NCBI GenBank assembly: GCA_963790365.1
Contig: CAWBOU010000047.1
Span: 71,429 to 135,428 of the forward strand
DNA from: an uncultured delta proteobacterium
GTDB lineage: Bacteria > Desulfobacterota > Binatia > JACPRU01
Length of the DNA stretch: 64,000 bases
Direction of reading: 5' to 3'
Part shown: in pieces, positions 20,941 through 51,249 of the stretch
Layout of the letters: the number at the start of each line of letters is the position of its first letter
Numbering within the stretch: the stretch's first letter is position 1
The notes under the pieces: generated by a model
What the model was told of the DNA's origin: nothing
The model's database searches: none
Seen by the model: the letters and a program-made list of their open reading frames with translations, nothing else
Program-made: the position numbers and the translations under genes

Positions 20941-21009
20941 TCGAAGCCTCCTCCGCGCTCGTATCGTCGCGCGAGGCCCGCGGTGTCAACAGGTCGCGCG
21001 TCAACATCA

Positions 21010-21037
21010 CGGGCGCCGGCGATTTCGCCGGCGCCCG
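21010..21037 (-). terminator. GC-rich stem-loop downstream of the 21077..21433 gene
   Basis: CGGGCGCCGGCG attt CGCCGGCGCCCG, a perfect 12-bp stem with no clear U-tract. Confidence 0.45.
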
Positions 21038-21076
21038 TGGCGTCGATCGGACCGACGATCTCCGCTGAGGTCGGGA

Positions 21077-21433
21077 CTACCAGCCGCGGCGATGATCGTA
21101 CCGCCAGTCGAGGCGATCGCCGCGACGGTCGAGACGCTCATCGATGCGGTCACCGCGCCGATCGTACCACTCCTCGATCCGATCGCCCCTCTCGTCGAGG
21201 TAGCGAGCGCGCCGATAGTCGCCACGCGCCGCGGCACGTTCCGAGAGCCGATCGTAGTGATCCTCGATGCGATCGCCGCGCCGGTCGAGGCGCGCGTCGA
21301 TGCGATCGCCACGACGGTCCCAGCGGTGCTCGACGCGGTCGCCGCGGTCGCGGCAGAATTCGTCGGCCTGCGCCGCGCCCGCCGTCAGGAGAAAAGCCAA
21401 GCTTCCGGTTGCCAACAGGATTCGCGTCTTCAT
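21077..21433 (-). CDS. small secreted protein made of DRRGDRI(D/E) repeats
   Basis: ATG 21433: MKTRILLATGSLAFLLTAGAAQA signal, then six RGD-containing repeats (RDRGDRVE, DRRGDRID x3, DRRGDRIE, ERGDRIE, DRRGDRLD). Confidence 0.65.
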   Translation of the reverse strand: MKTRILLATGSLAFLLTAGAAQADEFCRDRGDRVEHRWDRRGDRIDARLDRRGDRIEDHYDRLSERAAARGDYRRARYLDERGDRIEEWYDRRGDRIDERLDRRGDRLDWRYDHRRGW

Positions 21434-21560
21434 GCCCGATAGACCGCGCTCGCGCCGAAACGGTTCACGCGAGCCGAATGCCGAGCGGCCGCAACATCGT
21501 CTCATTGGTGCGGTCCGATGCAGCGCGTCGCTCGGTGAGACGATCGGAAGCAGCGTCCCC

Positions 21561-22103
21561 TCAGGGGAGTGACTGGCTGGTCGACGGAATCGACCGCTCG
21601 CCACGATCGGTGAGGATCCGTCCGCTCGCCACGCGAACCGTCGGACGCTCGCTCGTGTCGGCGTCGACCGCGCAGCTCCTCACGGACAGCGTGAACGGTT
21701 GCTGGCTGCGCGGCGGGACGACGCCCGCGAAGGGGAACTCACGCGACTGACACGACGGCGGCTGGCCGGCGCCGCCGGCAGTGAAGGGAAAGTTCGTTTC
21801 GTAGGAAAGCGCCGTCCCCTGACGGACCTGCAGCGGCTCATCGCAAGGATTCCCGACCGATGCGGTCACGACGAAGTCGACGTGCTCGATGTCGGAGTCG
21901 CGGGAGACGGTCGCGCGCCGGATCGCGACCTGCGCGTCGACCGTGAAGCCGGCGCAGACCGGCGCGCCCTGCGGGAGCGCTCGCGCCGGCGGCTTGTCGC
22001 TCCGAAAGTGAGGCTGCGCGAGCGCGAGCTCGGCGATCCCGACGAGCGTGACGACGAGCGGCGCCCTCACGGCGCCGGGGATTCGCTGAACGACGGCACG
22101 CAT
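21561..22103 (-). CDS. secreted hypothetical protein (last gene of the 34.4-21.6 kb operon)
   Basis: N-terminus MRAVVQRIPGAVRAPLVVTLVGIAELALAQP (signal-like), four Cys, no family recognised. Alternative GTG start at 22070. Confidence 0.6.
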   Translation of the reverse strand: MRAVVQRIPGAVRAPLVVTLVGIAELALAQPHFRSDKPPARALPQGAPVCAGFTVDAQVAIRRATVSRDSDIEHVDFVVTASVGNPCDEPLQVRQGTALSYETNFPFTAGGAGQPPSCQSREFPFAGVVPPRSQQPFTLSVRSCAVDADTSERPTVRVASGRILTDRGERSIPSTSQSLP

Positions 22104-23719
22104 CCCGACAGGTCCGAGCTACAGACCTCGCCGACCGGGCAGCAGCAACACGTCTGCCCGCAGTTCTCCGCGGTCTCGTCGGGGCAGCCGCCGGTCGCCG
22201 CGCAGCAGCCGGCCTCGCTGTTGCAGACGGCCGCCTGCTCGTCGGCTCCGTTCGGGCAATCCGACTGCGTGTTGCAAACGAGGTTTCTCGCGATGCAGGT
22301 TCCCTCGCCGCACTCGAACTGGTCGTTCGGGCAGTTGCCCTCGCCCGGCACGTCCCCGCCGCCGTCGCCGCCGCCACTGCTCGCCGCGATCCCGCCCGCG
22401 ACCGCGCCGGCAACGACCGCCACGCCGGCGATCACCGCGGTGGTCGTGCTGACGCCGATTCCACCACCCGCCGTCGCGGCCGTTCCCGTGGCGGCGACCG
22501 CGCTCTGTGCGGACGGCGCCGCGCCTTCGACGGCGGCGACAATCCCGGCCGTAGAAAGGAAAATCAGCGGCAGCAAGGCAAGCTCGCGGCGCGCGAGCTC
22601 GAAGTCCGGATCCTCGCGGAGCGCCTGCTCGAGCTCGCGTCGCGCGCCCTCGTAGTCGCCGCGATCCTTGGCGTCGAGCCCGTTCGAGAACGCGATCATC
22701 GCCGGCATGCTCTTCGTCTGCTGCTCTTTCACTTCCGCGATGACCTGCGAATCGAGCGGCCGCACGACGACGGGCGCCGCCACGGGCCGCCGCGGCGCGG
22801 GCGACGGAGCCGCGGACGGCTGCGTCACCCAGGCCGGCACCTCCTCCTTCGGCTCCGCCGGCTTCGGTTCGGCGCGCTCCAGCGCGGCCGGCTTCTCGCC
22901 GTAACCGAGATCGGCGAGGATCCGCAGCGCGAGCGCTTTCTCGAGCTCGAAGAAATCGTCGATTCCCCCGCTCGCTTCCTGCGTGCCGAGAATCGCGGCC
23001 GTGCCGCTCTCCGCGACGACCGAGTCGAGGCGCAGCTCGCTCTTCGACGGATCCACGTAGCTGCCGGTCGTCACTTTGCCGGCGCCGAGCAGCTTGCCGA
23101 CCTTCGGCGCCGTGCGCTCGTCGACGAGGCCGCTCTGTCCGACCTTCATCTCCTGGAGCATCGCCTGCAGGCGATCGCGCTCGACGACGCGCAGCTCTTT
23201 CACCTTGGAGACGTCGTCGATGAGGAGCGCGGTGAGGCCCTTCTGCAGCGGCGTCAGCTCCGCGGAGCCGAGGTTGCGGTAGTACGTGATCGCCACGGTG
23301 CGTGGATCGCCGGGCCCGAGCCGCTGCTCCTTGGCGATCTGCTCGCGCGCGAGCTGCTCGTTCGCCTCGCGGATGAGCAGCGTGAGATGGCGCCGCACGT
23401 CCTCGGGAAGCTCTTGTTCCCGCTCTTCCGGAGTCGACGGCGCGAGCTTCGTGTAGGTGTCCCAGGCGGCAATCGCGTCGCTCGTGCGTCCGAGCCGCAG
23501 ATGGGCGAGACCGAGGTAGAGCGCGACCGGGCTCGACTTCGGCGCGAGCGCGCGGGCCTGCCCGAGCACGCGGGCGGCCTCTTCGTAGTTGCCCGCCTTG
23601 TACGCGTCGATGCCGGTCTCGATCGCGCCCGCGGCGTTCGACGGCGACGCGGCATGGAGCGCGGGCCCGAAGGCGATTCCCAGTGCGAGCCAAACGGCCA
23701 AGGCCTGTCGCGAGCGCAT
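22067..23719 (-). CDS. TPR + CsgG/LpoB-like domain protein with Gly/Ala-rich hydrophobic segment, C-terminal LDL-receptor class A module and Cys-rich tail
   Basis: ATG 23719 overlaps the upstream TGA. Signal [23 protein letters not shown]; TPR (YKAGNYEEAARVL..ALYLGLAHLRLGR); VAITYYRNLG..LRVVERDRLQAMLQEMKVGQSGLVD..GKLLGAGKVTTGSY; CPNDQFECGEGTCIARNLVCNTQSDCPNGADEQAAVC. Confidence 0.85.
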   Translation of the reverse strand: MRSRQALAVWLALGIAFGPALHAASPSNAAGAIETGIDAYKAGNYEEAARVLGQARALAPKSSPVALYLGLAHLRLGRTSDAIAAWDTYTKLAPSTPEEREQELPEDVRRHLTLLIREANEQLAREQIAKEQRLGPGDPRTVAITYYRNLGSAELTPLQKGLTALLIDDVSKVKELRVVERDRLQAMLQEMKVGQSGLVDERTAPKVGKLLGAGKVTTGSYVDPSKSELRLDSVVAESGTAAILGTQEASGGIDDFFELEKALALRILADLGYGEKPAALERAEPKPAEPKEEVPAWVTQPSAAPSPAPRRPVAAPVVVRPLDSQVIAEVKEQQTKSMPAMIAFSNGLDAKDRGDYEGARRELEQALREDPDFELARRELALLPLIFLSTAGIVAAVEGAAPSAQSAVAATGTAATAGGGIGVSTTTAVIAGVAVVAGAVAGGIAASSGGGDGGGDVPGEGNCPNDQFECGEGTCIARNLVCNTQSDCPNGADEQAAVCNSEAGCCAATGGCPDETAENCGQTCCCCPVGEVCSSDLSGCVPSFSESPAP

Positions 23720-25725
23720 CACTCCACCCCTTCCGGAATCGTGACGGTGCCGAGCACGAGCGGGAGCCCGGCGAACGTGAACGACCCGTTCGGCCCGGCC
23801 GCGGTCACCGCGGTCAACCGCTGCGTCGAAACCGGCCGCGTCGGTACCGCCGTATCGTCGTCGTCCCCACAGCTCGCCTGAAGCGCCGCTGCGGCGAGCA
23901 GCATCGCGAGCACGAGCGCGCGCTTTCGCCGCGACGGCGCCGCGGCGGCGAGGAAGACGATCCCGATCACATCGAGCCAGCCCGGGTACCGCGCGGGCGT
24001 CAGACCGGCGAGGACCACCCGCGGGCGGCCGGCGAAGAATTCCGGCGTGCCCACGAGACCGACCGTCAGCTCGAACGTCGCGGTTCCGCCGGGCTCGAGC
24101 ACGAGCGGATCGACGAAGCAGAACTCGCTCGGGCGGGCAGGCACGGCTTTGGCGCGCCGGTTGAACGCGCCGGAAGCACCGACGATGATCGCGGTATCGA
24201 AGAACTCCGGCCGTCCGAAATCGATCGCGGCGCACGAGACCCCGACCGCGACGCTCGACCGGTTGTGGAGATCGAAGCGCCCGGCGACGACGGTCTCGTC
24301 CTCCGAGCCGAGGGCACGCACCGGCGCCTCGGTCGTGGCATCGCTGTCGGGATCGGGCGTGGGGCTCGGGCCCTGAGTCGGGGTCGAGGTCGGGCCGAAC
24401 GGCGGCGTCGCGGTCGGGCTCGGGCCGGGCGTGATCGGCGGCCCGCTCGTCGGCGTCGACGTCACGGTCGGTGTCGGCGTGGGCGATGGTCCGAAGGTCG
24501 GCGTCGGCGACGGTCCGAAGGTCGGCGTCGGGGTCGGCAGGGAGAGCGGATTGTCGAACGCGAGCACGCGATTGTACTCGTTGTCCGCGACGTAGACGTT
24601 CCCCAACGAGTCGATGGCGACTCCGGTCGGGCCGCAGAGCGCGTCCGCGCTCGGGCTCGCGCAATCCCCGGTGTTGAAGCTGCCGTTCTGGCCGAACACG
24701 AAGTCCGCGGTGGTGTCGATGGTGCCCGGATCGAGGTAGACGAGGACGCGGTTGTTGCCGAAATCGGCGGCGAAGAGATTGCCCGCCGCGTCGACCCCCA
24801 AGCTCGAAGGGTCGCAGAGTCGATCCGCCGTCGGACCCCCGTCCTCGTTGCACGCGCCGTCCACGAACGTGCCCTGCCCGATCGGGAACGACGGCGAGCT
24901 GCTAGCGAGCGGGTCGGCGAACTTGAGGATCCGGCTGTTGCCCGCATCCGCGATGAACAACTCGCCGAGCGGGTCGAGCACGACCCCGCCGGAGGCGCAG
25001 AGGACGTCGGGCCCGAGCGGCCCACCTTGGTTGCACAGGTTCGTCGCGAAGCTCCCACTCTGACCGAAGACCCGATCCGCCAACGCATCCCCGGCGATCG
25101 GCGCGTCGTATTCGAGCACGCGGTTGTTCCCCGCATCCTTCACGTAGAGGTTCCCCGCGCTGTCGAGCGCGAGGGACACCGGGAAACACAAGCTCCCGGC
25201 ATCGATTCCGTTGGTGTTGCAAGAGGTCGTCGCGAAGCTTCCGCCTTGCCCGAACACCCGGTCCGCAACCCCGCCGGACGTGAACGGGCTGTCGTACTCG
25301 AGCACCCGGTTGTTGAACGCGTCCGCTACGAACAGATTCCCGGCGCCGTCGACGGCGACGCCGATGGGATTACAGAGAGTGGACGCGCTCGGACCCGATG
25401 CCTGGTTGCAGTCCACGGCATCCGCGGTCGGCTGCCCGATGATCAGGTCGGGCAACGCGCCGTTCGTGAACGTGGTCGCGTTCGCCCAACCGAGCACGCG
25501 GTTATTGTTGGAGTCGACGACGTAGAGGCGGTTCGACGAGTCCACCGCCACCGCCGCGGGCGCGCTGAGCCCGCCTCCGTCAGGCGGGTTCGAATCGGCC
25601 GAAACGAAGTCGGTCTGGCCGAGGACGCGATCCGCGGTCGTGTCGCCCGGCGCCGCTCGGCCGGTGACCGGCAGGAGAGCAAGCACCAGGATCGCGAGAC
25701 AAGCGCTGGATCGGCGCTCATTCAT
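23719..25725 (-). CDS. NHL-repeat beta-propeller protein with Pro/Thr-rich linker and C-terminal domain
   Basis: ATG 25725: signal [24 protein letters not shown]. Six or more repeats of the type G(V/L)A(V/L)D..GNL(Y/F)VAD..NNRVL.(Y/F)D. PT-linker [30 protein letters not shown]. Confidence 0.85.
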
Positions 25726-26959
25726 GACGCAGAGCCTCGATGGGATAGATCGCGGACGCTCGTCGTGCGGGATGAAACCCGAAGACGAGCCCGAACGTGA
25801 TGGAGATGATCGAAGTCCATAACATCGCCGACGCGGACACGTAAATCGGGAAACTCGCGAACGCACGGAGCGCGAGCGCCGTGACGAGCCCGAAGAACGT
25901 GCCTGCGATACCCGCGCCGAGCGCGAGCGCGGCCGATTCCGCGAGAAACTGGAGCTGCACGTCGCGTGCGCTCGCGCCGACTGCCCGGCGGACACCGATC
26001 TCGGCCGTGCGCTCGGTGACCGTCGCGAACATGACGTTCGAGATCCCGATGCCGCCGACGAAGAGCGCGAGCGCGGCGATGCCCATCAATGCGAGCTCGA
26101 GCGTCGCGCGCGCTTGCCGCCCGCGCTCGAGGAGCTCGATCGGCGCGACGACCTCGTACGCGCCGCGCCCTCGGGACGAGCGGTCGAGGACGCTTCGCAC
26201 GAGCGTCGCCGCCGCGGGCACGTCGGTCGTGCGCTCGAGGTCGAGCGCGATCTCGGTGAGCGGCCAGCGCTGCTGCGTCGTGCCTGCCGGGGCGAGCAAT
26301 TCGATCGGCACGTAGACGTCGCGATTCACGTCGCGCGCGCGCACCACCGCCTTCTCCGCACGAAGCTCGGCGCGGTCGGCGAGCACGCCCACCACGCGGA
26401 GATGCATCGCGCCCGCCTGCAGCCGCCGTCCGATCGGGTCGGCGAGGCCGAAGAGCTCGCGCGCGACGCCGGCGCCGAGCACGCAGACGGCATGTCGCCG
26501 GCGTCCGTCCTCGGGGGCGAGATAACGCCCGGAGGCGAGCCCGAGCCGAAACGTCGCGTACGACTCCGCCGTCGTGCCGACGATGCGCGCGTCCGCGCGG
26601 CGGCCGCCGGCGAAGACTTGCGCTCGCCGCTCGTCGCTCGGCGCGATCGTCGCGAGGCTCGGAATCGCGCTCGCGAGACGGGACGCGTCGCCGAGGGTCA
26701 GGGGCACACCCCCGGCAGACGCCTCCGCACCGGCCGCACGCACGAAGATCGACGTCGCACCCGCCTCTTCCACCTGGCGGACGACTTCCTGCCGCGCGCC
26801 TTCGCCGATCGCGGCGATGACGATGACGGTCGCGATGCCGACCGAGATGCCGACCGCGCTCGCCGCCGCCCTTCCGCGATGGGCGCGAAGGCCCTGCCAC
26901 GCGAGAACCGCGAGCCGGCGCCAGGGGATCCCCGTCCGCTCAGCCGTCGAGGCGACCAT
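25718..26959 (-). CDS. ABC transporter permease, FtsX/MacB/DevC type
   Basis: 413 aa: N-terminal TM, large periplasmic domain, and C-terminal FtsX-like helices ([27 protein letters not shown]). Confidence 0.85.
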
Positions 26960-27611
26960 CTTCGAGCTCGAGCACGCGCGTCGCGAAAGCCGCGACCGCG
27001 GGGTTGTGCGTGACGACGACGACGCTCGTGCCCGAGGCGTGGAGGCCGCGGAACACTTCCATGACCTCCGCCCCGGTCCGCGCGTCGAGGTTGCCGGTCG
27101 GCTCGTCGGCGAGAAGCAGCGCCGGCTCGTTCACCACCGCGCGTGCAATCGCCGCGCGCTGGCATTCACCTCCCGAGAGCTCGGACGGCCGGTGGCCGGC
27201 TCGATGCGCGAGACCGACCGCTTCGACCGCGCGGAGCGCACGCCGACGCGCCTCCGCGAGCGACGCGTCCGAGTAAAGGAGCGGTACCTCCACGTTCTCG
27301 AGGACGGACAATCGCGGGATCAGGTGGAATCGCTGGAAGACGAACCCGATCTCCGCGTTCCGGAGCGCGGAGACGCGCACGTCGTCGAGCGCCGCGACGT
27401 CGTCCCCGCGGAACCGCACGCAGCCGGTCGTCGATCGATCGAGGCAGCCGAGCAGATGGAGCAGCGTCGACTTGCCGGCGCCCGAAGGTCCCGTGATCGC
27501 GAGGAACTCACCCTCGGCGACGTCGAGGGACACGTCGTTCAGCACTCGCACCGAGCGCACGCCGGCGCCGTACGTCTTCGACACGTTCGCGAGCGACGCG
27601 AGCGGGGTCAT
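26940..27611 (-). CDS. ABC transporter ATP-binding protein (MacB/LolD/DevA type)
   Basis: ATG 27611 (ATGA overlap). Walker A GPSGAGKST, signature LSGGECQR, Walker B LLLADEPTGNLD. Confidence 0.9.
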   Translation of the reverse strand: MTPLASLANVSKTYGAGVRSVRVLNDVSLDVAEGEFLAITGPSGAGKSTLLHLLGCLDRSTTGCVRFRGDDVAALDDVRVSALRNAEIGFVFQRFHLIPRLSVLENVEVPLLYSDASLAEARRRALRAVEAVGLAHRAGHRPSELSGGECQRAAIARAVVNEPALLLADEPTGNLDARTGAEVMEVFRGLHASGTSVVVVTHNPAVAAFATRVLELEDGRLDG

Positions 27612-29053
27612 GGTTTCGCCGTCCGCGGTATGAGGCTCACCTCGTCGCCCTCTTCGAGGCCGGCGACGACCGCGACGAAGTCGTCGTTGCTCTCCGCGAC
27701 CTGCACCTCGCGATCGACGAACGTGCCGCCCGACTTGACCGCGCACAGTCGCCGCCCGTCGCGCTCGAAGATCGCTTCGATCGGCACGAGCATCGCGTTC
27801 GCCGCCCGGCCGAGCGCGATCGCGACTTCCGCGGTCATCCCGGGCCGGAGCCGCGGGTCACTCCCGTCGAGCCGCACGCGGACCTCGAAGTGCTTGTCTT
27901 CGCGAGCACCGGCCCGGTCCGTGGCGAGGTTGCCGACGAAGTCGACGACGCCCGCGAGCCGGAGATCGGGGAACGCGTCGAGCGTGATCTCGGCGCGTTG
28001 CCCGGCGGCGAGGCGGTGGACGTCGAACTCGCGAATCGCGGTCTCGACCCCCATCTCCGAGGTGTCCGGGATCGTCATGATCGGCTGGCCCTGCCACACG
28101 GAATCGCCGATCTGAATCTTGCGGTACTCCGAGCCCATCGGGATCGCGTCGTAGACGAGGAATCCGTCCGTCGGCGCGAGGACCTCGAGCCGGCGGACGT
28201 CCGCTTCGGAGCGCGCGAGATCGGCACGCGCGGCCTCGAGCGCCATTTCCGCCTTCGCGGCGAGCGCTTCCTGCCGCACGCGCTCGTGCGTCGCGCTTTC
28301 CGTCAGGCGGGAGACTTCCTGCTTCGCGCGTTCGAGCGCGGCGCGCGAGCGCTCGATCTCGGCCGGCTGGCGGTACTTGAGCAGGTTCTCGTGCTGCGCC
28401 GCCGCGAGCGCTCGCGAGCGCTGGGCCTCCGACAAGCGCGAGTGCGCCTCCTCGAACTCCTTCCGAGTGACGAAGCCCTGCTTCAGGAACTCGTCCGCGT
28501 CGGCGGCCGCCTGCGAAGCCTGGAGGAGCTGCTCGTCCGCTTGATCGAGGCGCGCCTTCGCTTCGCGCACGGTGAGCGGCGCACTGCCCTCCTCGAGCGT
28601 GCGGAGGTCGATCTCCGCGAGCCGAGCACGCATCTCCGCGTCCTGGATCGCCTGGGCGGATTTCCCCTGGAGGAGCGCCGAGTCCGCGCGCGCCTGCGCG
28701 AGGCTCGCCTCGGCTTCCTTCACCGCGCGCGAGAACTTCGTCACTTCCTCCGCGAAAGGCGCCGCGTCGAACTGCACGAGGAGGTCGCCCTTGCGGACGA
28801 ACGTGCCCTCCTGCGCGAGACGGATCACCTTCGCGCGGTTGCTCTGGATGTCGGACGCGATCGTCACCGAGCGCGGCGCGACGAGCGTGCCGCGCTCGAC
28901 GATGCGGCTCTCGAGGGGGCCGCGACGAACACGGGCGGTAGGCTCTGCGACCGAGACGCGCCCGCCACTGCCGACGCGACCGCCGAACACGAGGGTCGCC
29001 CCGATGAGCCCTACGGCCGCCCAGGCGAGCGTTCTCTTTCCCCCGTGATCCAT
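27608..29053 (-). CDS. HlyD/MacA/DevB-type periplasmic adaptor
   Basis: 481 aa: N-terminal TM, long coiled-coil centre, barrel/lipoyl halves (GDLLVQFD .. APTDGFLVY .. GMTAEVAI). Confidence 0.85.
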   Translation of the reverse strand: MDHGGKRTLAWAAVGLIGATLVFGGRVGSGGRVSVAEPTARVRRGPLESRIVERGTLVAPRSVTIASDIQSNRAKVIRLAQEGTFVRKGDLLVQFDAAPFAEEVTKFSRAVKEAEASLAQARADSALLQGKSAQAIQDAEMRARLAEIDLRTLEEGSAPLTVREAKARLDQADEQLLQASQAAADADEFLKQGFVTRKEFEEAHSRLSEAQRSRALAAAQHENLLKYRQPAEIERSRAALERAKQEVSRLTESATHERVRQEALAAKAEMALEAARADLARSEADVRRLEVLAPTDGFLVYDAIPMGSEYRKIQIGDSVWQGQPIMTIPDTSEMGVETAIREFDVHRLAAGQRAEITLDAFPDLRLAGVVDFVGNLATDRAGAREDKHFEVRVRLDGSDPRLRPGMTAEVAIALGRAANAMLVPIEAIFERDGRRLCAVKSGGTFVDREVQVAESNDDFVAVVAGLEEGDEVSLIPRTAKP

Positions 29054-29054
29054 C

Positions 29055-30464
29055 TCAGGAACAGACCGAGCCGAGCGGGTCGTCTCCGACGAGCGTCCGC
29101 AAGAGCTCCTCGAGGCGACCCGAGCTGCGCCGTACCCGGAGCGAGGCGAGAATCCGCTCGATCCGCAGCGCAGCCTCGTCGCGCTGCGCCTTGGCGAGCG
29201 CGTCCTCCGCCTCGAGGACGTCGAGCAGGCTCGCGTACCCGCGATCGAATCGGAGGTTCGCGAGCTCCACGTTGGCCGAAGACGCCTGCACGTTTCTCTC
29301 CTGCACGGCGATCCGGCGCTCGATCGTGGCGAGACGACGCACCGCCTGTCGCACTTCGAGCGTCACGCGCTGCTGGATCTGCGCGGCTTCGCGCTTGCGC
29401 GTCGCGAGCTCGAGGCGTGCCTGCTCGGCTTGGGCGCGCCCGACTCGCCAGTCGAGCGGATTCGTGCCGGACACGAGGAAGCGAACGCCCGACTCGTCGA
29501 GCGAGGTGCTCTGCTCGAACGTCGGCCCGACGCCGACGAGCGCGAAGTTCACTCCGACGCGGAGGTCCGGGTAGATGTTTCGCTGCGCCACGCGCGCGCG
29601 AAGCTCGGCCTCCGCCGCCTGGTCGATCGCCTCGGCGATCTCCGCGCGCCGCTCGAGCGCCGCGGCGATGAGCGTTTCTTCGCCTTCCTCGACCTGCACG
29701 ACGAGCGGCTCCGGCACGATCGCGAGCGGCTCGCCCGGCGCGCGCCCGAGGAGCACGTCGAGCTCGTCGCGGGCCGACTCGGCGGACTCGCGGGCGTCGA
29801 GGAGATCGTTCTCCGCAGCGGCCTCCTGCCCCTGCGCGCGGAAGACCTCCATGCGCGTCGCGAGCGCCTTCGCGAGACGCGCGTCGGCGACGCGCGCGTG
29901 ATGCTGCGCGCGCTCGAGCTGGCGCTCGAGGATCGCGATCTCGGAGTCGAGACCGACGATGCGATAGAACGCCTCCGCGACGTCCATCGCGACCTGCTCG
30001 GCGGTCAGTCGGAGCTGCCGCTCCGCCGAGCCGACGCGTCGCGAGGCCTCCACGACCCGCGCGGTGTTCGTCAGCGGGCCGAAGTCGCGGAACAACGCCT
30101 GCGAGAGCGTCACCCCGGAGAACGAGCGATGGAAATCGTCCTCCGTCGAGGCGGTTCCGGCGCCGAGCTCGACGATCGTGCCGGTCGAGAACTTCTTGTT
30201 CACGCTGACGGCGCTCGACTGTGACGTCTCGGTATCGGAGCCGAGCCCGCTCGTCGCGAGCGGAACGAGATGCACGGCGAATTCCGCGTTCGCGACGTCG
30301 ATGCCGTAGCGAGCCGAGCGCACGGAGTCGCAGCCGTCGTGGATCCGCCGATTCGATTGCAGCGCCGTGCGGAGCGCGTCGGTCAGCGCAATCGGCGTGG
30401 GCTCGGCGGCACAGAGCTCGGCGAAGGTGACCGTCGCGGCAAGCACGAGAGCTCGATTCTTCAT
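29055..30464 (-). CDS. TolC-family outer-membrane channel
   Basis: 469 aa with a signal peptide and a duplicated coiled-coil/beta architecture (LTDALRTALQSN.., LLDVLEAEDALAKAQRDE). Confidence 0.85.
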   Translation of the reverse strand: MKNRALVLAATVTFAELCAAEPTPIALTDALRTALQSNRRIHDGCDSVRSARYGIDVANAEFAVHLVPLATSGLGSDTETSQSSAVSVNKKFSTGTIVELGAGTASTEDDFHRSFSGVTLSQALFRDFGPLTNTARVVEASRRVGSAERQLRLTAEQVAMDVAEAFYRIVGLDSEIAILERQLERAQHHARVADARLAKALATRMEVFRAQGQEAAAENDLLDARESAESARDELDVLLGRAPGEPLAIVPEPLVVQVEEGEETLIAAALERRAEIAEAIDQAAEAELRARVAQRNIYPDLRVGVNFALVGVGPTFEQSTSLDESGVRFLVSGTNPLDWRVGRAQAEQARLELATRKREAAQIQQRVTLEVRQAVRRLATIERRIAVQERNVQASSANVELANLRFDRGYASLLDVLEAEDALAKAQRDEAALRIERILASLRVRRSSGRLEELLRTLVGDDPLGSVCS

Positions 30465-31174
30465 GATGACGTCTCGAGAAGCTTCTTCAGGCGCTCCTCG
30501 GCCTCCACGTCGTTCGCGTTCAGCTCGAGCGCCTTCTTGTAGCCTTCGATCGCCGCGTCCGTCTTGCCGGCCTTCTCGGCGGCGAGCGCGGCGTAGTAGT
30601 GCTCCGCCGCGCGGAGCGATTTGTTGTTCGCCACTCCGGCGCCGCTCGCGCGCTTCGCGACCGCGAGGCCGAGACCGCGTACGAGCTGGTCGGAGAGCTT
30701 GCCGGCGACGGTCCGCGGCGACCCGGGCGAGCCGCGCTCCGTCACCGAACGGAGCACCACGCCGCTCTCGACGTCGACGATCCGCGCATCGACGCTGAGC
30801 GAGCCCGCGATCGCCATGAAGCCGCCGAAGATCATCGTCTGCGCACCCAGGATCTTACCCAAACGAATTTTCGTCTCGTCCGCGGCGAGGTCGGAGCTCC
30901 CGAGCTTTTGCTCCGCGAGGACGTTCGCGAGCTTCTGCCGTTCGACCACGACGAGCTGCTTCGATTCCACGAGCCGCGTGGTGATCGCGTCCGGCAGCCA
31001 CTCGCGGAGGAAGTCCAGCCGCTTCCGGCCCTCGATGGAGTTGTTGTCGAACGGAATCACGGCGACGGTCTGGCGCCGCGTGGCCACCTTCACCTTGGCC
31101 TTCGCTTCGGCGGCGAGCGCCTCGCCGCCCGCGAGAGCGATCGCCGTCCCGAGCACCAGGATGCCGAGCTTCAT
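30461..31174 (-). CDS. CsgG/LpoB-like domain + TPR protein
   Basis: ATG 31174 (ATGA overlap). Signal MKLGILVLGTAIALAGGEALA; VAVIPFDNNS..LVVVERQKLANVLAEQKLGSSDL..LGKILGAQTMIFGGF..DARIVDVESG; C-terminal TPR (AEHYYAALAAEKAGKTDAAIEGYKKALELN). Confidence 0.8.
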   Translation of the reverse strand: MKLGILVLGTAIALAGGEALAAEAKAKVKVATRRQTVAVIPFDNNSIEGRKRLDFLREWLPDAITTRLVESKQLVVVERQKLANVLAEQKLGSSDLAADETKIRLGKILGAQTMIFGGFMAIAGSLSVDARIVDVESGVVLRSVTERGSPGSPRTVAGKLSDQLVRGLGLAVAKRASGAGVANNKSLRAAEHYYAALAAEKAGKTDAAIEGYKKALELNANDVEAEERLKKLLETSS

Positions 31175-33084
31175 TCTTTCGACTCGAGCAGGCGCTGACC
31201 CTTCGCGAACGAGCTCCCGGAGACGCCCTTGGCCACGGCGAAGCCGTCCTCGACCGAGGTGAGCTCGAGCTTGCCGATCGTTTTCTTCCTCGTGCCCACG
31301 ACTTTCCCGTTCACCTCGACCGGCACTTCGTCGCCGATCACGTTGAAGCGCTGCCCGGCTTTCGCGCCGTGCTTCTTGCCGATGCCGACGACGATCTCTT
31401 CGCCTTCGACCGAGGCGATCGTGCCCTTGAGCGGATACTCGCCCCGCAGCTTTTCTTCGATCGTCGTGGCGACCTTCTCGGCGAACGTGCCGATCTCTGC
31501 GGGATCCGCGAGCGTCTCCTGCACCGTCGAGCGGACCGCCGTCGTTTCGGTATCGACCAACCGGAGCTGCAGGCGGCTCTGGCCGCCCGCCGGCTGGAAA
31601 CCGCCGAGACCGACGACGGACGCCGCGAAGAGCTTGCCGAGCTTCAATTGCGTTGCCGGATCCGCGAGCTCCGAGGAGCCGAGCTTCAGCTCCTGGAGGA
31701 GCTTGTCGAGGGTCTCGCGCTCGACGAGCGTGACTCGGCCCGATTTCTCGAACCCCTGCGTGAGGCCGATCAGGAACGCATCGTCGAGCCCGTCGCGCGC
31801 GAGCGGCCCGAGCTCCATCTTCAGATCGACGAGCGAGATGACGAGCTTCCGCGGCTCCCACTCGTCCGCGGGCTTCGCCGTCGCGGCGCCGCTCTTGTAG
31901 GCCTTGGCGAGGTCGTCGACGAGCTTGTCGGTGAATTTCTGCCGCTCGAGATCGAGCTTCTCGCGCTCGGTCCGCTCGATCTTCGTGAGGAGAGCGGCGA
32001 CGAGCTCGTCGTCGGGCGCGAGCGCCTTGGCCGCGGTGAGCGTCTTCTTCGCCTCGGCGGTCTTGCCGGCCTTCTCGAGCGCGGCTCCCTGATTGCTCCG
32101 CGCCGCGACGAGGAACGGCTCCTTCTCGATCGCCTGGTCGTACGTGCGGATCGCCTCTTCGGGCTCGGTCTCGCGGGTGACCAACGCGAGATTGTTGAGC
32201 GCCATCGCCGACTGCCAGCCGAACTGCGCTTGTTTCTGTCCGGCTTCCTCGAACGAGGCCTTCGCGAGCTCGAGCTTCCCGCCGCGAGCGGCGATCTCAC
32301 CGCGGACGATCGCCGCCGGCGCGCTGTCGGCGCCCGCCTTCTTCGCCTGCGCCTCGGCTTCATCGAGGTTGCCCTTCCGCAGCGCGACCGCCGCGAGCCC
32401 CTCGGCCGCGACCTTTCCGCCCGTGCCTTCGAGCTTGCCGAGCGCGCGGAACGCCTTCTCCGCTTCGGCGAGGTTGCCTTTCTCCAGCATCGCGTAGGCG
32501 GCGCCCGCGCGCGCCTCGACGCTGTTCGGGTCCGCCATCAGCGCATCGCTGAACACGTCGGCGGCGAGCTGCGGGTTGCCGCGCGCGAACTGCTTCTCGC
32601 CGACGGAGATCAGCACCTTCTGCGAGGCGAGCCCGCCGCCGCGCACGACGTCGCCGATGATGCCGTCCGGCGAGACGACGTAGGTGAGCGGCACTCCATC
32701 GCGGGCGCCGTACGTCGAGAACGTCTCGCCCTTCGTGTCCGCGCACACCGGGTACCGCAGCGAGTGGGCGTTCACGAACTCGACCAGCTCCTTCGGCGGA
32801 TCGCCGGCCACCGACACGACCGCGAGGCCGTTATCGCCATGCTTGGTCGCGATCGTGCCGAGCGTGACGGCGAGATTCCGCGACGGCTCCGAGCCGAGCG
32901 ACATGAACGAGACGATCGCGATCGGCGACTCGTGGAGCGACTCGAGCGAGATCTCCTTGCCGGTCACCGTGGTCAGGCGGAACGGCGGTGCGGGCTTGCC
33001 GACCTCGAGGTCCGCGGCCATGGATGCCACGGCGTAGAAGAGGAAACTGGGAAGGAGTGAAAGGAGGCGGGAAGCATTCGTCAT
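31171..33084 (-). CDS. thioredoxin-fold (TlpA/redoxin-like, Cys-less) + TPR + CsgG/LpoB-like domain protein
   Basis: ATG 33084 (ATGA overlap with the kinase stop). GKPAPPFRL..IAIVSFMSLGSEPSRNL (SEPS where redoxins have CxxC); TPR block; VISLVDLK..VTLVERETLDKLLQELKLGSSEL..LGKLFAASVVGLGGF. Confidence 0.8.
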   Translation of the reverse strand: MTNASRLLSLLPSFLFYAVASMAADLEVGKPAPPFRLTTVTGKEISLESLHESPIAIVSFMSLGSEPSRNLAVTLGTIATKHGDNGLAVVSVAGDPPKELVEFVNAHSLRYPVCADTKGETFSTYGARDGVPLTYVVSPDGIIGDVVRGGGLASQKVLISVGEKQFARGNPQLAADVFSDALMADPNSVEARAGAAYAMLEKGNLAEAEKAFRALGKLEGTGGKVAAEGLAAVALRKGNLDEAEAQAKKAGADSAPAAIVRGEIAARGGKLELAKASFEEAGQKQAQFGWQSAMALNNLALVTRETEPEEAIRTYDQAIEKEPFLVAARSNQGAALEKAGKTAEAKKTLTAAKALAPDDELVAALLTKIERTEREKLDLERQKFTDKLVDDLAKAYKSGAATAKPADEWEPRKLVISLVDLKMELGPLARDGLDDAFLIGLTQGFEKSGRVTLVERETLDKLLQELKLGSSELADPATQLKLGKLFAASVVGLGGFQPAGGQSRLQLRLVDTETTAVRSTVQETLADPAEIGTFAEKVATTIEEKLRGEYPLKGTIASVEGEEIVVGIGKKHGAKAGQRFNVIGDEVPVEVNGKVVGTRKKTIGKLELTSVEDGFAVAKGVSGSSFAKGQRLLESKE

Positions 33085-34391
33085 CGAGTCTCCTCGGCGA
33101 CCAGCGCGAGCTCGATCTGTACGCGCTGATTCGGTTTCACCACGGCGGTCTGACGCGCGGTGTAGTAACCTGCCTTGCGTAGCTCGACCTCGTAACGCCC
33201 GGGCGGAACTTCGAGCGTGAACGGCGTGCGGCCGACCATCTTGCCGTCGACGTAGACGTCCGCACCGTCAGGGTCGGTGATGGATTCGACGAAGCCGCGC
33301 TCGACGACCGCCGGCGGCGCCGGCGGTGGTTGCGGAGGCGCCGTGTCCGGGGCACGCGCGGGCTTCGCCGCGAAGCGAAGGTAGAGCGCGGCCCCGAGGG
33401 CGAGCACGAGCGCGAGCGCGACCACACTGCCGACGAGCCCACCCCGCCCGCGCGCCGGCAGGGCCGCGGGCGCCGGCTTCCCGGGCGCGGCTGTCGACTG
33501 GAGCAGCTCCGTCGCGTCCGCGGCGGGCGTCGCGACCGTCTGTTGCGCGGCTTGCGGCGCCGGTTGCCTCGCCGCGATCCGCTCGAACGCTTCGCGCGCA
33601 GCGCCCGCGTCGGCGGGACGGCGCTCGCGGTCCTTCTCGAGGAGGCTCATCACGAGGTCGCGGAGATCCTGCGGGACCGCAGGAGGGAGCGGCGGCGGCG
33701 CCTCGTTCAGGTGCTTGAACATCATCGCTTCGAGGGTGCCGGGAAACGGCGGGGCACCCGCGAGCATCTCGTAGGTCATCGCGCCGAGCGAATAGAGATC
33801 GGCGCGGCCGTCGATCTCCTCGCCGCGCCACTGCTCCGGTGGCATGTACCGCGGCGTACCGACGACGAAGCCCGTGCTCGTGAGGTTCGCGCCGTCGTTC
33901 GCGAGCTTGGCGATGCCGAAGTCCGCGACCTTGACGTGGTCACCGCCCGCCGTCTTGATCACGAAGACGTTCGGCGGCTTGAGATCGCGGTGCACGATTC
34001 CGAGCGGCGGCTTATGCGCGTCCGCGAGCGCATCGCAGATCTGTTGGGCGATTCGCGCCGCGCGTTGCGGCGGCAGCGGCGCTTCTCGCTTCAGCAGCTC
34101 ACCGAGCGTCTCGCCGCGAATCAGCTCCATCGCGAAGTAGAGCGCGCCCTCCGGGGTTCGCCCCGCGTCATAGACGGTGACGGCGTGAGGATTCGACAGG
34201 CTCGCCGTGACGCGGACCTCACGGAGGAAGCGTCGGGCGAACACTTCGTTCGACGCATGCGCGGCGTGCACGGTCTTCAGGGCCACTTCGCGAAGCGCCT
34301 CTCCGTCGGGACCGAGCTGCTCGGCGCGGTAGACGGTGCCCATCCCGCCCTCGCCGAGCGTCCCCAGAATGCGGTACTTGTCGACGATCAA
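33081..34391 (-). CDS. Ser/Thr protein kinase with TM segment and C-terminal PEGA domain
   Basis: TTG 34391: [50 protein letters not shown]; [22 protein letters not shown]; PEGA-like [34 protein letters not shown]. Confidence 0.85.
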
Positions 34392-34474
34392 TCGGGATTC
34401 TCTTTCGACGCTACAACACCGGTTGCGCCGGTCGCAAGATCGGCAAATGTCTCTACCGAGGAGGTTCCGCGACG

Positions 34475-36075
34475 ATGAACGACCGAGAGCTCTGGGATCG
34501 CTACCGCCGTCATCTTTGTGTCGTCGACAGTCTCGGGCTCGAGCTCGATCCGTCGCGGATGCGCTTCGGCGACGACTTCTTCGACCGCATGGCGCAACCG
34601 ATGGCGCAGGCGTTCGACGAGATGGAGGCGCTCGAGCGCGGCGCGATCGCGAACCCCGACGAGAATCGCATGGTCGGGCACTACTGGCTTCGCGCGCCCG
34701 AGCTGGCGCCGACGCCGGAGCATCACTCGGGCGATCCGAGAACACGCTGGCGGCGATCCACGGCTTCGCCGCGGACGTCCACGCCGGGCGCATCCGCCCG
34801 GAGAAGGCCGACCGCTTCCGCAGGATCCTCGTGGTCGGCATCGGCGGCTCGGCGCTCGGTCCGCAGCTCGTGGCCGATGCGCTCGGCGGGCGCGCAGGAC
34901 GCGATGCGGCCGTCGTTCCTCGACAACACCGATCCGGACGGCATCGACCGCGTGCTCGGCGGCCTCGGCGACGAGCTCGCGGCGACGCTCACCGTCGTCA
35001 TCTAGCAAGTCCGGCGGCACCAAGGAAACGCGCAACGGCATGCTCGAGGCCGCGCGCCGCGTATCCGCGCGGGGGCTCACGTTCGCCCGGCACGCGGTGG
35101 CGGTGACCGGCGAGGGCAGCGAGCTCGACCGCCACGCGGTCGCGGAGAAGCTGGCTCGCGCCGCTTCCCGATGTGGGACTGGGTCGGCGGCCGCACGTCC
35201 GAGCTTTCCGCGGTCGGTCTCCTGCCGGCGCGCGCTGCAGGGGATCGACATCGACGCGCTCCTCGCCGGGCGCGCGGGACATGGACGTCGCGACGCGGGT
35301 CGGCGACGTCAAGCGGAACCCCGCGGCGCTGCTCGCGCTCATGTGGCATCACGCCGGGGACGGCCGAGGCAAGAAGGACATGGTGATCCTGCCCTACAAG
35401 GACCGCTTGCTCCTCATGCAGCAAGTACCTCCAGCAGCTCGTGATGGAGTCGCTCGGCAAGGAGCTCGATCGCAAGGGCCAGGTCGTGAACCAGGGCATC
35501 GCCGTCTACGGCAACAAGGGCTCGACCGATCAGCACGCCTACGTGCAGCAGCTCCGCGACGGCGTGAACAACTTCTTCGTCACGTTCATTGAGGTGCTGA
35601 ACGATCGCGCAGGCGACATCGATGGCCGTCGATCCGGGCGTGACGAGCGGCGACTACCTGCTCGGCTTCCTGCTCGGCACGCGACGCGCGCTCTTCGAGA
35701 AGGACCGCGAGTCGATCACGATCACGGTGCCCGAGGTGAGCCCGCGCACGCTCGGCGCGCTGATCGCGCTCTACGAGCGCGCGGTCGGCTTCTACGCGAT
35801 CGCTCGTCGACATCAACGCCTATCACCAGCCCGGCGTCGAGGCGGGCAAGAAGGCGGCGACGGCCGTGCTCGAGCTGCAGGGACGCGTGCTCGCCCACCT
35901 GAAGGGGGGCGGGTCCGGCACGGCGGAAGCGATCGCCGCGGCCGTCGGCGCGCCGGAGGCGGCCGAGACGATCCTGCACGTCCTTCGACACCTCGCCGCC
36001 AACGGCCGCGGCGTGGAGGCGTCGGTCGCCAAGTCCCCGTTCGAACAGAGCTTTCGCCTCGCCCAGGCTCGTTAG
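34475..36075 (+). pseudogene. pgi: glucose-6-phosphate isomerase in about 12 frame segments, or assembly indels
   Basis: Pieces in successive frames: [27 protein letters not shown] | ITRAIRE | [24 protein letters not shown] | [16 protein letters not shown] | SKSGGTKET.. | [22 protein letters not shown] | [12 protein letters not shown] | ..[18 protein letters not shown] | [31 protein letters not shown] | [15 protein letters not shown] | [15 protein letters not shown]. Confidence 0.85.
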
Positions 36076-44713: not shown

Positions 44714-44715
44714 TT

Positions 44716-46302: not shown

Positions 46303-46366
46303 GTCCTCCTCCCCGATGCGGCGGGTAACACGCCCGCTCACGCACGGTCAACGAGAGTCAAACGAG

Positions 46367-46450
46367 AGGGGACGTTGCGCTCTTGTTGTCCTTTTCGCCG
46401 CTTCTCCAACGGGCGTCCCGGAAAAGGACAACAAGAGCGCAACGTCCCCT
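46367..46450. repeat. 30-bp perfect inverted repeat (large hairpin) between the FHA-cytochrome gene and the DUF336 gene
   Basis: AGGGGACGTTGCGCTCTTGTTGTCCTTTTC (46367-46396) is the exact reverse complement of GAAAAGGACAACAAGAGCGCAACGTCCCCT (46421-50); 24-nt loop. Confidence 0.9.
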
Positions 46451-46462
46451 TCACTCTTTCCG

Positions 46463-50164: not shown

Positions 50165-50174
50165 CGTCGGAATC

Positions 50175-51245: not shown

Positions 51246-51249
51246 GCCG

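Follow-up and report, generated by a model that had tools for sequence, protein, structure and literature searches.

In the threonine phosphorylation pathway (TPP) of type VI secretion systems (T6SSs), an outer-membrane lipoprotein, a periplasmic protein and a COG4591/COG1136 ATP-binding cassette (ABC) complex act together with a kinase in the membrane, a phosphatase of the PP2C type and an FHA protein (PMC13584744). FlgT and the lipoproteins FlgO and FlgP build the H-ring, which encircles an envelope-spanning machine in the periplasm (PMC7990780). In Mycobacterium tuberculosis, PknF phosphorylates the FHA-bearing ABC transporter Rv1747 (PMC8339232). Here, we analyzed a ten-gene operon (g1–g10) at positions 21561-34391 on the minus strand of a 64-kb stretch of DNA with ~70% G+C, referred to as the window. 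In protein searches, the best relatives of the window proteins belonged to Candidatus Binatia/Binatota metagenome-assembled genomes. The operon is a composite that fuses a unit A, consisting of the PEGA-domain kinase g1 and the secreted proteins g2, g3 and g9, with a unit B, the pump g4–g7; g8 and g10 complete it. We regard it as a trans-envelope signalling module that is built on a Hanks kinase and joined to an envelope machine. All of its domains are known, while their conserved combination is without a curated family or defense-system match.

By analogy, the nearest described logic is the TagQRST–PpkA–PppA–Fha pathway of the Pseudomonas aeruginosa H1-T6SS, in which a trans-envelope sensor and a LolCDE/MacB-type ABC complex are joined to a bitopic Hanks kinase, PP2C and FHA proteins. 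The module studied here likewise has a predicted membrane Hanks kinase with a periplasmic domain, its relatives carry PP2C and FHA genes, and some Desulfobacterota relatives have a TssBC-like sheath gene. In contrast to the T6SS pathway, no T6SS core genes were present among the window open reading frames (ORFs) scanned, and the only such component seen, a TssB–TssC fusion, occurs in a minority of related loci. The periplasmic proteins of the module, FlgT/CsgG-N-like and with tetratricopeptide repeats (TPRs), are unrelated to TagQ and TagR; its kinase has PEGA as ectodomain; the core includes a peptidase of the periplasm; the ABC proteins come with a membrane-fusion protein (MFP) and TolC; and the window operon has neither PP2C nor FHA genes. 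Among flagellar systems, the Vibrio H-ring and the TPR scaffolds of polar motors come closest. The H-ring resembles the module in the FlgT M+C arrangement predicted for the C-terminal half of g2 (Foldseek E ~1e-10 for 3w1e and 8z5n) and in small partners of the same fold, which are lipoproteins in most lineages; one relative also has a weak Pfam FlgO match. It differs in that the module has no nearby flagellar genes and no FlgT_N, shares only ~13% sequence identity and carries the g2 fold fused to TPRs and a dead thioredoxin fold in linkage with a kinase. As in MacAB–TolC, g4–g7 supply an outer-membrane factor (OMF), an MFP, an ATPase and a four-helix permease with the MacB periplasmic core domain, but here ATPase and permease are separate polypeptides, and the pump is embedded in a kinase/scaffold operon. 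With curli CsgG, the window proteins share a homologous N-terminal α/β domain, and in Nitrospirota the neighborhood includes full-length CsgG together with curlin-like genes in tandem; missing from the window proteins are the lipid anchor and the half of CsgG that forms the barrel, and no curlin-like genes occur in the window. Finally, PknF–Rv1747 (PMC8339232, PMC5549992) also pairs a Hanks kinase with an ABC exporter under phosphothreonine/FHA control and is a precedent for the control of such an exporter by a kinase. There, FHA is fused to the transporter, whereas the window pump has none, and the envelope is of the monoderm type, with no periplasmic scaffold. The initial annotation of this DNA did not recognize the gene set as a described system, and we agree: none appeared in the literature searched or in curated family libraries. 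Full-text literature, with thin coverage of subscription journals, yielded no description of the gene combination, and NCBIfam had no equivalog for g1, g2, g3, g8, g9 or g10.

Unit A belongs to a core that extends across phyla. Related loci (84) were searched by tblastn, and the ORFs of 81 nonduplicate loci were clustered; 41 loci were fully flanked, and the denominators given here are the loci informative for each feature. Directly downstream of g2, g3 was found in 67/70 loci, while a kinase lay directly upstream of g2 in 52/77 and a gene for a secreted Trypsin_2 peptidase upstream of that kinase in 56/68. A second CsgG-like gene of the g9 type was present in 33/41 loci, PP2C in 16/41 and FHA proteins in 13/41, and PEGA occurred in 57/59 kinases linked to the module. 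To the core we assign a PEGA kinase, a peptidase of the periplasm, g2, g3 and a g9-like protein; PP2C and FHA proteins often accompany it. Synteny beyond the exporter genes, on which the initial annotation had staked its interpretation, therefore exists for kinase–g2–g3 and, in addition, g9-like genes in several phyla. The catalytic triad was intact in the peptidases inspected, which carried TPRs in examples from Binatia, Nitrospirota and Hydrogenedentes, but not in two Desulfobacterota examples scanned. A different arrangement is seen in beta-proteobacteria, where a caspase (Peptidase_C14) is fused to the N terminus of g2 (L024:9035-11881, L039:9053-11896 and P0034); these loci have the small CsgG-N-like gene upstream rather than downstream, and neither a kinase nor a separate peptidase gene nearby. 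As a Rosetta-stone link, this fusion ties a peptidase to g2.

Full-length homologues of g2 share ~50% identity in other Binatia and ~30-34% elsewhere. A scan of one genome per GTDB species detected relatives in 212 species from Binatota, Nitrospirota (including Manganitrophaceae and Nitrospira), many Desulfobacterota (including Desulfosarcina alkanivorans PL12), Magnetococcales, some beta-proteobacteria and bins labelled Bacteriovoracaceae; protein searches added Hydrogenedentes. With a profile of the FlgT-like half, 303 clusters (50% identity) were retrieved at E<=1e-30 among 1.84 billion representatives, most of them 620-660 aa long with the module at the C terminus. A metagenome scan with g9 returned only distant stand-alone g9-like genes.

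The neighbors of the core vary with lineage. Nitrospirota have a full-length CsgG (Pfam positions 9-202 of 210) beside it, accompanied by two or three curlin-like proteins encoded in tandem. Locus by locus, we observed one to three tandem curlin-like genes in Nitrospirota (L067:3884-6875 on the plus strand, also L012, L013, L014, L025, L051, L061 and L079), encoding small, secreted, Asn/Gly/Ser-rich proteins directly upstream of peptidase–kinase–g2–g3; next to them lie a gene for a 157-aa acidic protein and then a full-length CsgG with an FlgT_C-like tail. Multihaem cytochromes occur just upstream of the module in the Nitrospirota relative L001. In Desulfobacterota, a probable outer-membrane β-barrel, so called from a signal peptide, an alternating pattern and a C-terminal Phe only, is paired with the g9-like gene. 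A TssB–TssC fusion lies beside a gene with two FHA domains, divergent from the module, in 8/41 loci, all of deltaproteobacterial/Desulfobacterota type. One example (L042:4529-6097, minus strand) encodes 522 aa with Pfam VipA and VipB and matches the PDB sheath protein 5n8n_B at 2e-24. The TssBC gene cluster was also seen in L020, L023, L032, L043, L044, L048, L059, L062, L065 and L080, mostly co-oriented with the two-FHA gene and divergent from PP2C–peptidase–kinase–g2–g3, and elsewhere in L062 and L080. Among the genes flanking TssBC in the loci inspected, none was recognizable as a T6SS component. FHA–SLT lytic transglycosylases were found near related loci.

The kinase g1 looks like an active receptor. 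A cytoplasmic kinase domain (156 bits to Pfam Pkinase) is followed by a transmembrane (TM) helix at aa 318-336, a Pro-rich linker and PEGA at aa 372-432, which is predicted to be periplasmic because there is a single TM helix. Gly-loop, catalytic Lys, HRD, DFG and APE-like (PPE) motifs are all intact, as in Hanks-type kinases. With 218 bits to STK1 versus 148 to STK2, g1 is orthologous to the kinase that immediately precedes g2 in relatives.

The initial annotation had pointed to a pattern shared by three proteins of the operon and proposed a CsgG/LpoB/FlgO-type fold combined with TPRs. The motif VAV.PF / VVER..L..LL.ELKLG.S.L / LGK.LGA is indeed present in g2, g3 and g9, and the motif regions find one another by tblastn (E 1e-12 to 1e-6). 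All three exceed the Pfam gathering score for CsgG (58.2, 25.4 and 34.3 bits for the three proteins against 20.8), with partial coverage of profile positions 5-100, 44-96 and 30-97 of 210. The fold proposal thus stands at the superfamily level, as judged from Pfam, Foldseek and a PDB profile search, but only for the N-terminal α/β half of CsgG.

In g2, a signal peptide is followed by an AhpC/TSA-type thioredoxin fold, ~200 aa of TPRs, a charged linker and an FlgT-like half; the AhpC/TSA-type fold and the FlgT_C-like domain had previously been overlooked. SEPS replaces CxxC in the thioredoxin fold, with SKPS or other Cys-free versions in homologues, and none of 15 aligned homologues (alignment A1) has a Cys at the CxxC position; the only Cys of g2 is at position 114. 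The domain is thus not a redox enzyme. Several public records name proteins of the g2 family ‘peroxiredoxin’ despite the lost CxxC. An AlphaFold2 model of aa 400-637 from a ten-sequence alignment (pLDDT 81.5, pTM 0.73) had as its best Foldseek matches in PDB the Vibrio LPHT ring (8z5n, 1.3e-10) and FlgT (3w1e, 2e-10), both with a probability of 1.00, followed by TolB (~1e-6), CsgG (4uv2/4q79, 6e-4 to 1e-3) and LpoB (9.5e-4), and lower by PelC and GNA1162 (4e-3). The TolB match presumably runs through the TolB N-terminal α/β domain. In Pfam, this part of g2 aligns to CsgG positions 44-96 and to FlgT_C at 4.7e-4, below the gathering score; the FlgT_M plus FlgT_C two-domain arrangement is supported by Foldseek. 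FlgT_N was not found by Pfam, the N-terminal part being the thioredoxin fold and TPRs, and there are no flagellar genes among the window ORFs scanned or in the conserved neighborhood. On this model, the C-terminal half of g2 is best taken as a fold-family assignment with FlgT as its nearest member, rather than a close structural match.

The smaller protein g3 matches CsgG profile positions 5-100 and, slightly below the cut-off (21.2 versus 22.3 bits), LpoB at 2.8e-4. It contains no Cys and so is not a lipoprotein in the window; its orthologues are mostly lipoproteins of ~165 aa without TPRs and with a conserved lipobox Cys. A profile of 57 g3 orthologues detected CsgG in PDB at 3.7e-5, significant only over CsgG residues 4-111. 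In g9, a signal peptide precedes TPRs, a CsgG-N-like domain, further TPRs, hydrophobic Gly/Ala-rich segments (aa 379-397 and 428-446), an LDLa module and a Cys-rich tail. The LDLa sequence, CPNDQFECGEGTCIARNLVCNTQSDCPNGADEQAAVC, has the six-Cys/acidic-cluster pattern of this module, and the tail adds ten Cys; all 16 Cys of g9 fall within aa 463-540. This LDLa tail is 67% identical in L085. By tblastn, g9 matches the gene after g3 in Nitrospirota (L001 CsgG426, E 1.65e-61) and, at E 3.7e-50, c43, the head gene of the exporter operon in Binatia relatives. The former match makes g9 a core member, although the pump and NHL genes sit between g3 and g9 in the window. Binatia c43 proteins have the g9 layout with differing Cys-rich ectodomains, and all Binatia g9-type proteins end in a variable Cys-rich ectodomain after a Gly/Ala-rich hydrophobic stretch. 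We read the CsgG-N/FlgT-like domains of g2, g3 and g9 as scaffold or adaptor domains and not as pores.

Unit B is a complete MacAB–TolC-type tripartite ABC efflux pump, with a permease, an ATPase with intact motifs, an MFP and a TolC-family OMF. The OEP match of g4 was accompanied by NCBIfam matches to the TolC and NodT subfamilies, both below cut-off. The adaptor g5 is anchored at its N terminus and has a long stretch of predicted coiled coil; it scored 131.7 bits to RND_mfp (TIGR01730), above the 94.9 cut-off, compared to 75 versus 342 for MacA and 37 versus 129 for DevB. The best NCBIfam models for g6 were LolD (247.8 bits) and the N-terminal half of MacB (236.8 bits), both below cut-off; a script confirmed Walker A (GPSGAGKS) and LSGG, and Walker B (LLLADEPT) was read from the translation. 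MacB_PCD (aa 33-255) and FtsX (aa 294-405) were matched in g7, which matches the MacB permease half in NCBIfam at 3.2e-44 and has hydrophobic segments at 33-51, 289-307, 344-374 and 374-392 (four helices), with a large periplasmic domain between TM1 and TM2. No equivalog assignment to MacAB, PvdRT or LolCDE resulted, as all NCBIfam models stayed below cut-off (MacB 151 and 237 bits versus 966, LolD 248 versus 308, MacA as above). The TolC–HlyD–ABC exporter of the initial annotation was therefore recovered in all its parts (OEP, HlyD, ABC_tran and MacB_PCD/FtsX), but not as the DevBCA type, which we rejected on the DevB score and on DevA (183 versus 296 bits); NCBIfam places it nearer MacAB/LolD.

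Linkage between pump and core recurs in rearranged form. The window order is kinase, g2, g3, pump, NHL, g9, g10. Other Binatia (L005-L008 and the P0015 locus) have two divergent operons, one with a g9-like gene, OEP, MFP, ABC and FtsX (with 4-nt overlaps in the P0015 locus) and the other with the trypsin-type peptidase, kinase, g2, g3 and PP2C, then FHA in the two loci with gene annotation. After the FtsX permease gene, L006 and L007 (both at 1-400) encode a second Ser/Thr kinase that is, over the visible part, 71% identical to a kinase of L093 (L093:2909-4648; 579 aa) in which PEGA occurs twice; in the P0015 locus, the gene at this place has a 591-aa product for which no Pfam family is recorded. 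In Desulfobacteraceae L080, OEP, MFP, ABC, FtsX, the trypsin-type peptidase, g2 and g3 are co-directional and tightly spaced. That the linkage survives rearrangement argues for a functional tie. The pump is nevertheless a lineage-specific but recurrent partner and not part of the core, as it accompanies the module in Binatia and L080 but in few of the fully flanked loci overall. The proposal in the initial annotation of a kinase-controlled secretion machine holds in that the pump is joined to the module in most informative Binatia relatives and L080; with the pump outside the core, it becomes one lineage's version of a general scaffold/signalling module.

The ten genes are best explained as a single operon with coupled translation, carried by a genome of the Binatia (Binatota). 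From the ORF list and translations, we recovered ten minus-strand ORFs with coordinates identical to those first annotated, and the same genes emerged independently from a frame plot of G+C at third codon positions (GC3) and a crude GC3-based gene caller. Nine start with ATG and g1 with TTG; all stop with TGA. ATGA overlaps join g1/g2 (33081/33084), g2/g3 (31171/31174), g3/g4 (30461/30464) and g5/g6 (27608/27611); g4/g5 are separated by a 1-nt gap, and g6/g7, g7/g8, g8/g9 and g9/g10 overlap by 20, 8, 1 and 37 nt. These values agree exactly with the initial annotation at all nine junctions, and its view of the block as one operon-like unit was likewise borne out. Gaps of <=1 nt were found at 9/9 operon junctions versus 9/29 same-strand junctions elsewhere in the window, a run with p ~3e-5 under independence. 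Crude scans of 20500-36000 on the minus strand revealed neither sigma70-like consensus sites nor terminator-like ones. Junctions and empty scans together are weak but consistent evidence for one transcription unit, which would begin in the 83-nt gap before the divergent ORF at 34475 and end before a decayed zwf gene. The gap is shared with that ORF (34475-35005, plus strand), which had no family match, and its role as promoter is proposed from position only because no sigma70 consensus was found. Across the whole 64-kb window, no Rfam family reached its gathering score and no tRNA was detected. Pfam returned all of the families named in the initial annotation, in full Pkinase, PEGA, CsgG, TPR, OEP, HlyD, ABC_tran, MacB_PCD, FtsX, NHL and Ldl_recept_a (Table 1); LDLa, previously assigned to a separate tenth gene, instead lies within g9, and the tenth gene had no match.

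Table 1 Genes, domains and leader of the operon, with positions in the window
Feature	Position	Strand	Basis
Leader and probable promoter region 5′ of g1, 83 nt	34392..34474	-	Position, gene map
g1, Hanks-type Ser/Thr kinase, bitopic, 436 aa, TTG start	33081..34391	-	Pfam Pkinase 1.4e-45, PEGA 9.8e-16
g2, secreted protein, 637 aa	31171..33084	-	Pfam
g2, thioredoxin/peroxiredoxin-fold domain, aa 28-143	32656-33003	-	Pfam 55.5 bits versus 26 cut-off
g2, C-terminal half, aa 400-637, predicted TolB-N/CsgG-N/FlgT-M-type α/β domain and FlgT-C-type β-barrel	31171..31887	-	AlphaFold2 model
g3, secreted protein, 237 aa, CsgG-N/LpoB-like α/β domain and one or two C-terminal TPRs	30461..31174	-	Pfam CsgG 9.1e-16
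g4, TolC-family outer-membrane factor, 469 aa	29055..30464	-	Pfam OEP 1.2e-31, two stretches
g5, membrane-fusion (periplasmic adaptor) protein, 481 aa	27608..29053	-	Pfam HlyD_D23, HlyD_3
g6, ABC ATPase, LolD/MacB/DevA group, 223 aa	26940..27611	-	ABC_tran 3.4e-33
g7, MacB-type (type VII ABC) permease, 413 aa	25718..26959	-	MacB_PCD 3.2e-30, FtsX 1.3e-13
g8, secreted six-bladed NHL β-propeller, 668 aa	23719..25725	-	NHL 4.3e-37, six stretches
g9, third scaffold protein, 550 aa	22067..23719	-	Pfam TPR, CsgG 1.9e-8, Ldl_recept_a 7.7e-9
g9, LDLa module, aa 462-495	22235..22336	-	Pfam PF00057 36.1 bits versus 24.1 cut-off
g10, orphan secreted protein, 180 aa, 4 Cys, predicted all-β	21561..22103	-	GC3 0.86 in frame

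The two remaining genes are lineage-specific riders. C-terminal to the propeller, g8 has a linker rich in Pro and Thr and then a β-rich domain. Its tail (aa ~580-668, window 23719-23990, minus strand) is unusual, with a hydrophobic segment, SRRKR, a second signal-like segment up to the lipobox-like LQASC and ~55 further residues. The tail matches NF058595, a ‘lipo-invert putative C-terminal anchoring domain’, weakly and below cut-off (E 7.8e-4); it was rejected as a separate gene, there being no plausible start codon before the basic n-region. At least 5745 homologues of g8 cover only the propeller (47-65% of the query). Among the matches listed, none covered the C-terminal third, and there were only generic NHL propellers and no full-length orthologue; g8 was not detected by tblastn in any of the 84 related loci. 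For g10, there was no Pfam, NCBIfam or PADLOC match and only two homologues (97% and 67% identity) in 5.8 billion proteins. One of them, on the independent contig L085, again comes directly after the LDLa tail of g9, overlapping it by 1 nt, which makes the g9–g10 pair real but confined to near relatives. An AlphaFold model of g10 from three sequences was unusable (pLDDT 45).

Elsewhere in the window, zwf (glucose-6-phosphate dehydrogenase) is split over at least three reading frames at 19640-20940 on the minus strand, with Pfam pieces G6PD_N 1-31 and G6PD_C 3-34, 48-70 and 69-175 in separate ORFs; it adjoins an intact 6-phosphogluconolactonase gene and is either a pseudogene or the product of local indel errors in the assembly. 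The only FHA protein of the window (1233 aa, 46463-50164, minus strand) is unrelated to the operon and lies 12 kb from g1 in a multihaem/LVIVD/HbpS-like cluster (37963-52794); it has three FHA domains at its N terminus, joined to multihaem c-type cytochrome motifs, 4Fe-4S clusters and a pyridine-nucleotide disulfide oxidoreductase.

Taken together, these data suggest that phosphorylation signalling is wired to a pump or outer-membrane conduit. The reading we prefer, at a little short of an even chance, is the coupling of an exporter to a module that provides a trans-envelope scaffold and kinase signalling. Here, g2, g3 and g9 would form a periplasmic scaffold, possibly ring-like as for the same-fold proteins FlgT/FlgO/FlgP, PelC and TolB-N, between peptidoglycan or the outer membrane and an envelope-spanning conduit, in this case the pump. 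PelC and TolB-N are examples of scaffold- or ring-type assembly by domains of this fold. The kinase would read the state of the scaffold through PEGA and report it to the cytoplasm by phosphorylating Thr, with PP2C and FHA proteins as the relay in relatives, while the pump may expel a periplasmic or membrane-derived substrate by the MacB mechanotransmission mechanism. Our analysis shows how the genes are arranged, their domains and folds, their conserved linkage and the operon's composite origin; we infer physical assembly, signalling direction and the substrate. A broader proposal, which we regard as possible though doubtful, is that the core is a hitherto unrecognized, multiphylum trans-envelope system in which an FlgT-like ring or scaffold docks interchangeable conduits and couples their state to phosphothreonine/FHA signalling. 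The conduits would be TolC pumps in Binatia, CsgG/curlin-like systems in Nitrospirota and a β-barrel in Desulfobacterota; some lineages would also control a stand-alone TssBC sheath-like polymer, and the Binatia operon would be a natural ‘minimal’ scaffold–kinase–conduit fusion.

Several observations weigh against a coupled scaffold and exporter. A tblastn search (E<=0.01) revealed no trypsin–TPR, PP2C or TssBC gene in the window, even in degraded form, and with peptidase, PP2C and FHA partners missing, the signalling chain is locally incomplete. Foldseek TM-scores of the g2 model are low (0.35-0.40), which leaves ring formation as an analogy. The window versions of g2, g3 and g9 have ordinary signal peptides without a lipobox, unlike FlgO/FlgP, CsgG, LpoB and PelC, and the membrane topology of g9 is uncertain from its sequence. 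The crude promoter and terminator scans leave room for internal promoters. The pump occurs in only 3/41 fully flanked loci over all phyla, and Binatia L093 lacks it at the corresponding position, where an insertion sequence-type DDE transposase gene and three small ORFs lie between the two-PEGA kinase and the module. Pump coupling is lineage-specific and could be a matter of regulatory convenience rather than physical contact.

This scarcity, the missing pump in L093 and the different gene orders of window and relatives would all fit a generic MacAB–TolC resistance pump inserted by chance or for regulation into an unrelated kinase/scaffold operon, with no functional tie. We nevertheless consider such a juxtaposition highly unlikely, because the linkage has withstood rearrangement in other Binatia (at least five loci, L005-L008 and P0015) at only ~50% protein identity and recurs independently in a Desulfobacteraceae locus; moreover, the core member g9 heads the pump operon of relatives with 4-nt overlaps and a PEGA kinase ends it, and in the window an ATGA overlap joins g3 to g4. 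A functional pump could alternatively serve as a sensor. In a T6SS-TPP-like damage response, the ABC complex g6/g7 with MFP and TolC would act mainly as a signal transducer like TagTS/FtsEX and report outer-membrane or periplasmic perturbation to the kinase instead of exporting. The part types match TagQRST–PpkA–PppA–Fha (PMC13584744), and the TssB–TssC fusions next to two-FHA genes and the nearby FHA–SLT lytic transglycosylases of relatives point the same way. This is unlikely in our judgement, as the ORFs scanned in the window include no T6SS core gene, PP2C or operon-linked FHA, a complete MFP and TolC set speaks for real export, and the folds of TagQ and TagR are unrelated to g2, g3 and g9. 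The periplasmic domain of PpkA also differs from PEGA. The transglycosylases, together with a fold family that includes LpoB and TolB-N and the treatment of PEGA as a peptidoglycan-associating domain (PMC7159879), would suit a regulator of peptidoglycan or envelope growth, in which LpoB/TolB-N-like and TPR proteins and the PEGA kinase monitor or activate cell-wall synthesis or outer-membrane tethering as LpoB, CpoB and TolB do, with the pump a mere neighbor. No penicillin-binding protein, Tol–Pal or division gene was found in the window or the conserved neighborhood, the LpoB match is below the Pfam cut-off and the nearest structure is FlgT, not LpoB; we rate this alternative as quite unlikely.

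The remaining readings concern what is moved and through which channel. The initial annotation proposed as cargo of the kinase-controlled machine the NHL propeller and/or the LDLa/Cys-rich protein. Such a scheme is attractive in that g8, g9 and g10 are predicted to be secreted and co-transcribed with the pump, and Cys-rich tails are conserved in Binatia g9-type proteins. MacB pumps are also known for clearing the periplasm of small disulfide-rich peptides. The propeller, however, has no full-length orthologue among the matches listed and is missing from related loci, where the gene after FtsX is a kinase (L006/L007) or encodes the 591-aa product (P0015) rather than NHL, and at 668 aa it would be an implausible MacB substrate; LDLa belongs to the scaffold protein g9, which is apparently membrane-anchored, and g10 is limited to near relatives. 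Neither cargo candidate was thus upheld, and we give this version a low probability. An outer-membrane secretion channel of the CsgG type formed by g2, g3 and g9 is unlikely in the extreme, even with Pfam CsgG above the gathering score in all three and separate full-length CsgG with curlin-like genes in Nitrospirota relatives. The profile match ends near position 100 of 210, the PDB profile match is limited to the N-terminal part of CsgG, the g2 model has no extended β-hairpins, and its best structural neighbors are FlgT and TolB-N; in addition, the window proteins lack a lipobox and g3 any Cys. CsgG-like domains as a secretion channel are, accordingly, an unlikely use of this fold here. A defense system was rejected because PADLOC returned only generic kinase-domain matches for g1 (PD-T4-6 and mad6) and a marginal PD-T4-6 match for g8 (33.6 bits), with no match for g2, g3, g9 or g10. 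A magnetosome link, prompted by MamA matches and the taxonomic spread, was likewise rejected since the matches are TPR-only; Binatia and Manganitrophus, moreover, are not known to be magnetotactic.

For the organisms concerned, the module matters in several respects. Hanks-type kinases are common in environmental diderms, yet outside the T6SS pathway hardly anything is known of their inputs from the periplasm. For one family of them, the PEGA kinases, the module provides periplasmic partners that are defined and recur as a set. It presents FlgT-like domains at work away from flagella, and gene order ties it to three kinds of outer-membrane conduit. Cultivated carriers exist in Desulfosarcina alkanivorans PL12 (locus L084) and Thermodesulfobacteriota strain B35 (locus L032). 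Some 300 protein clusters (50% identity, E<=1e-30) that now bear the names ‘peroxiredoxin’ or ‘TPR protein’ would gain a role, and if the coupling is physical, the module would represent a new way to regulate or scaffold efflux and secretion systems.

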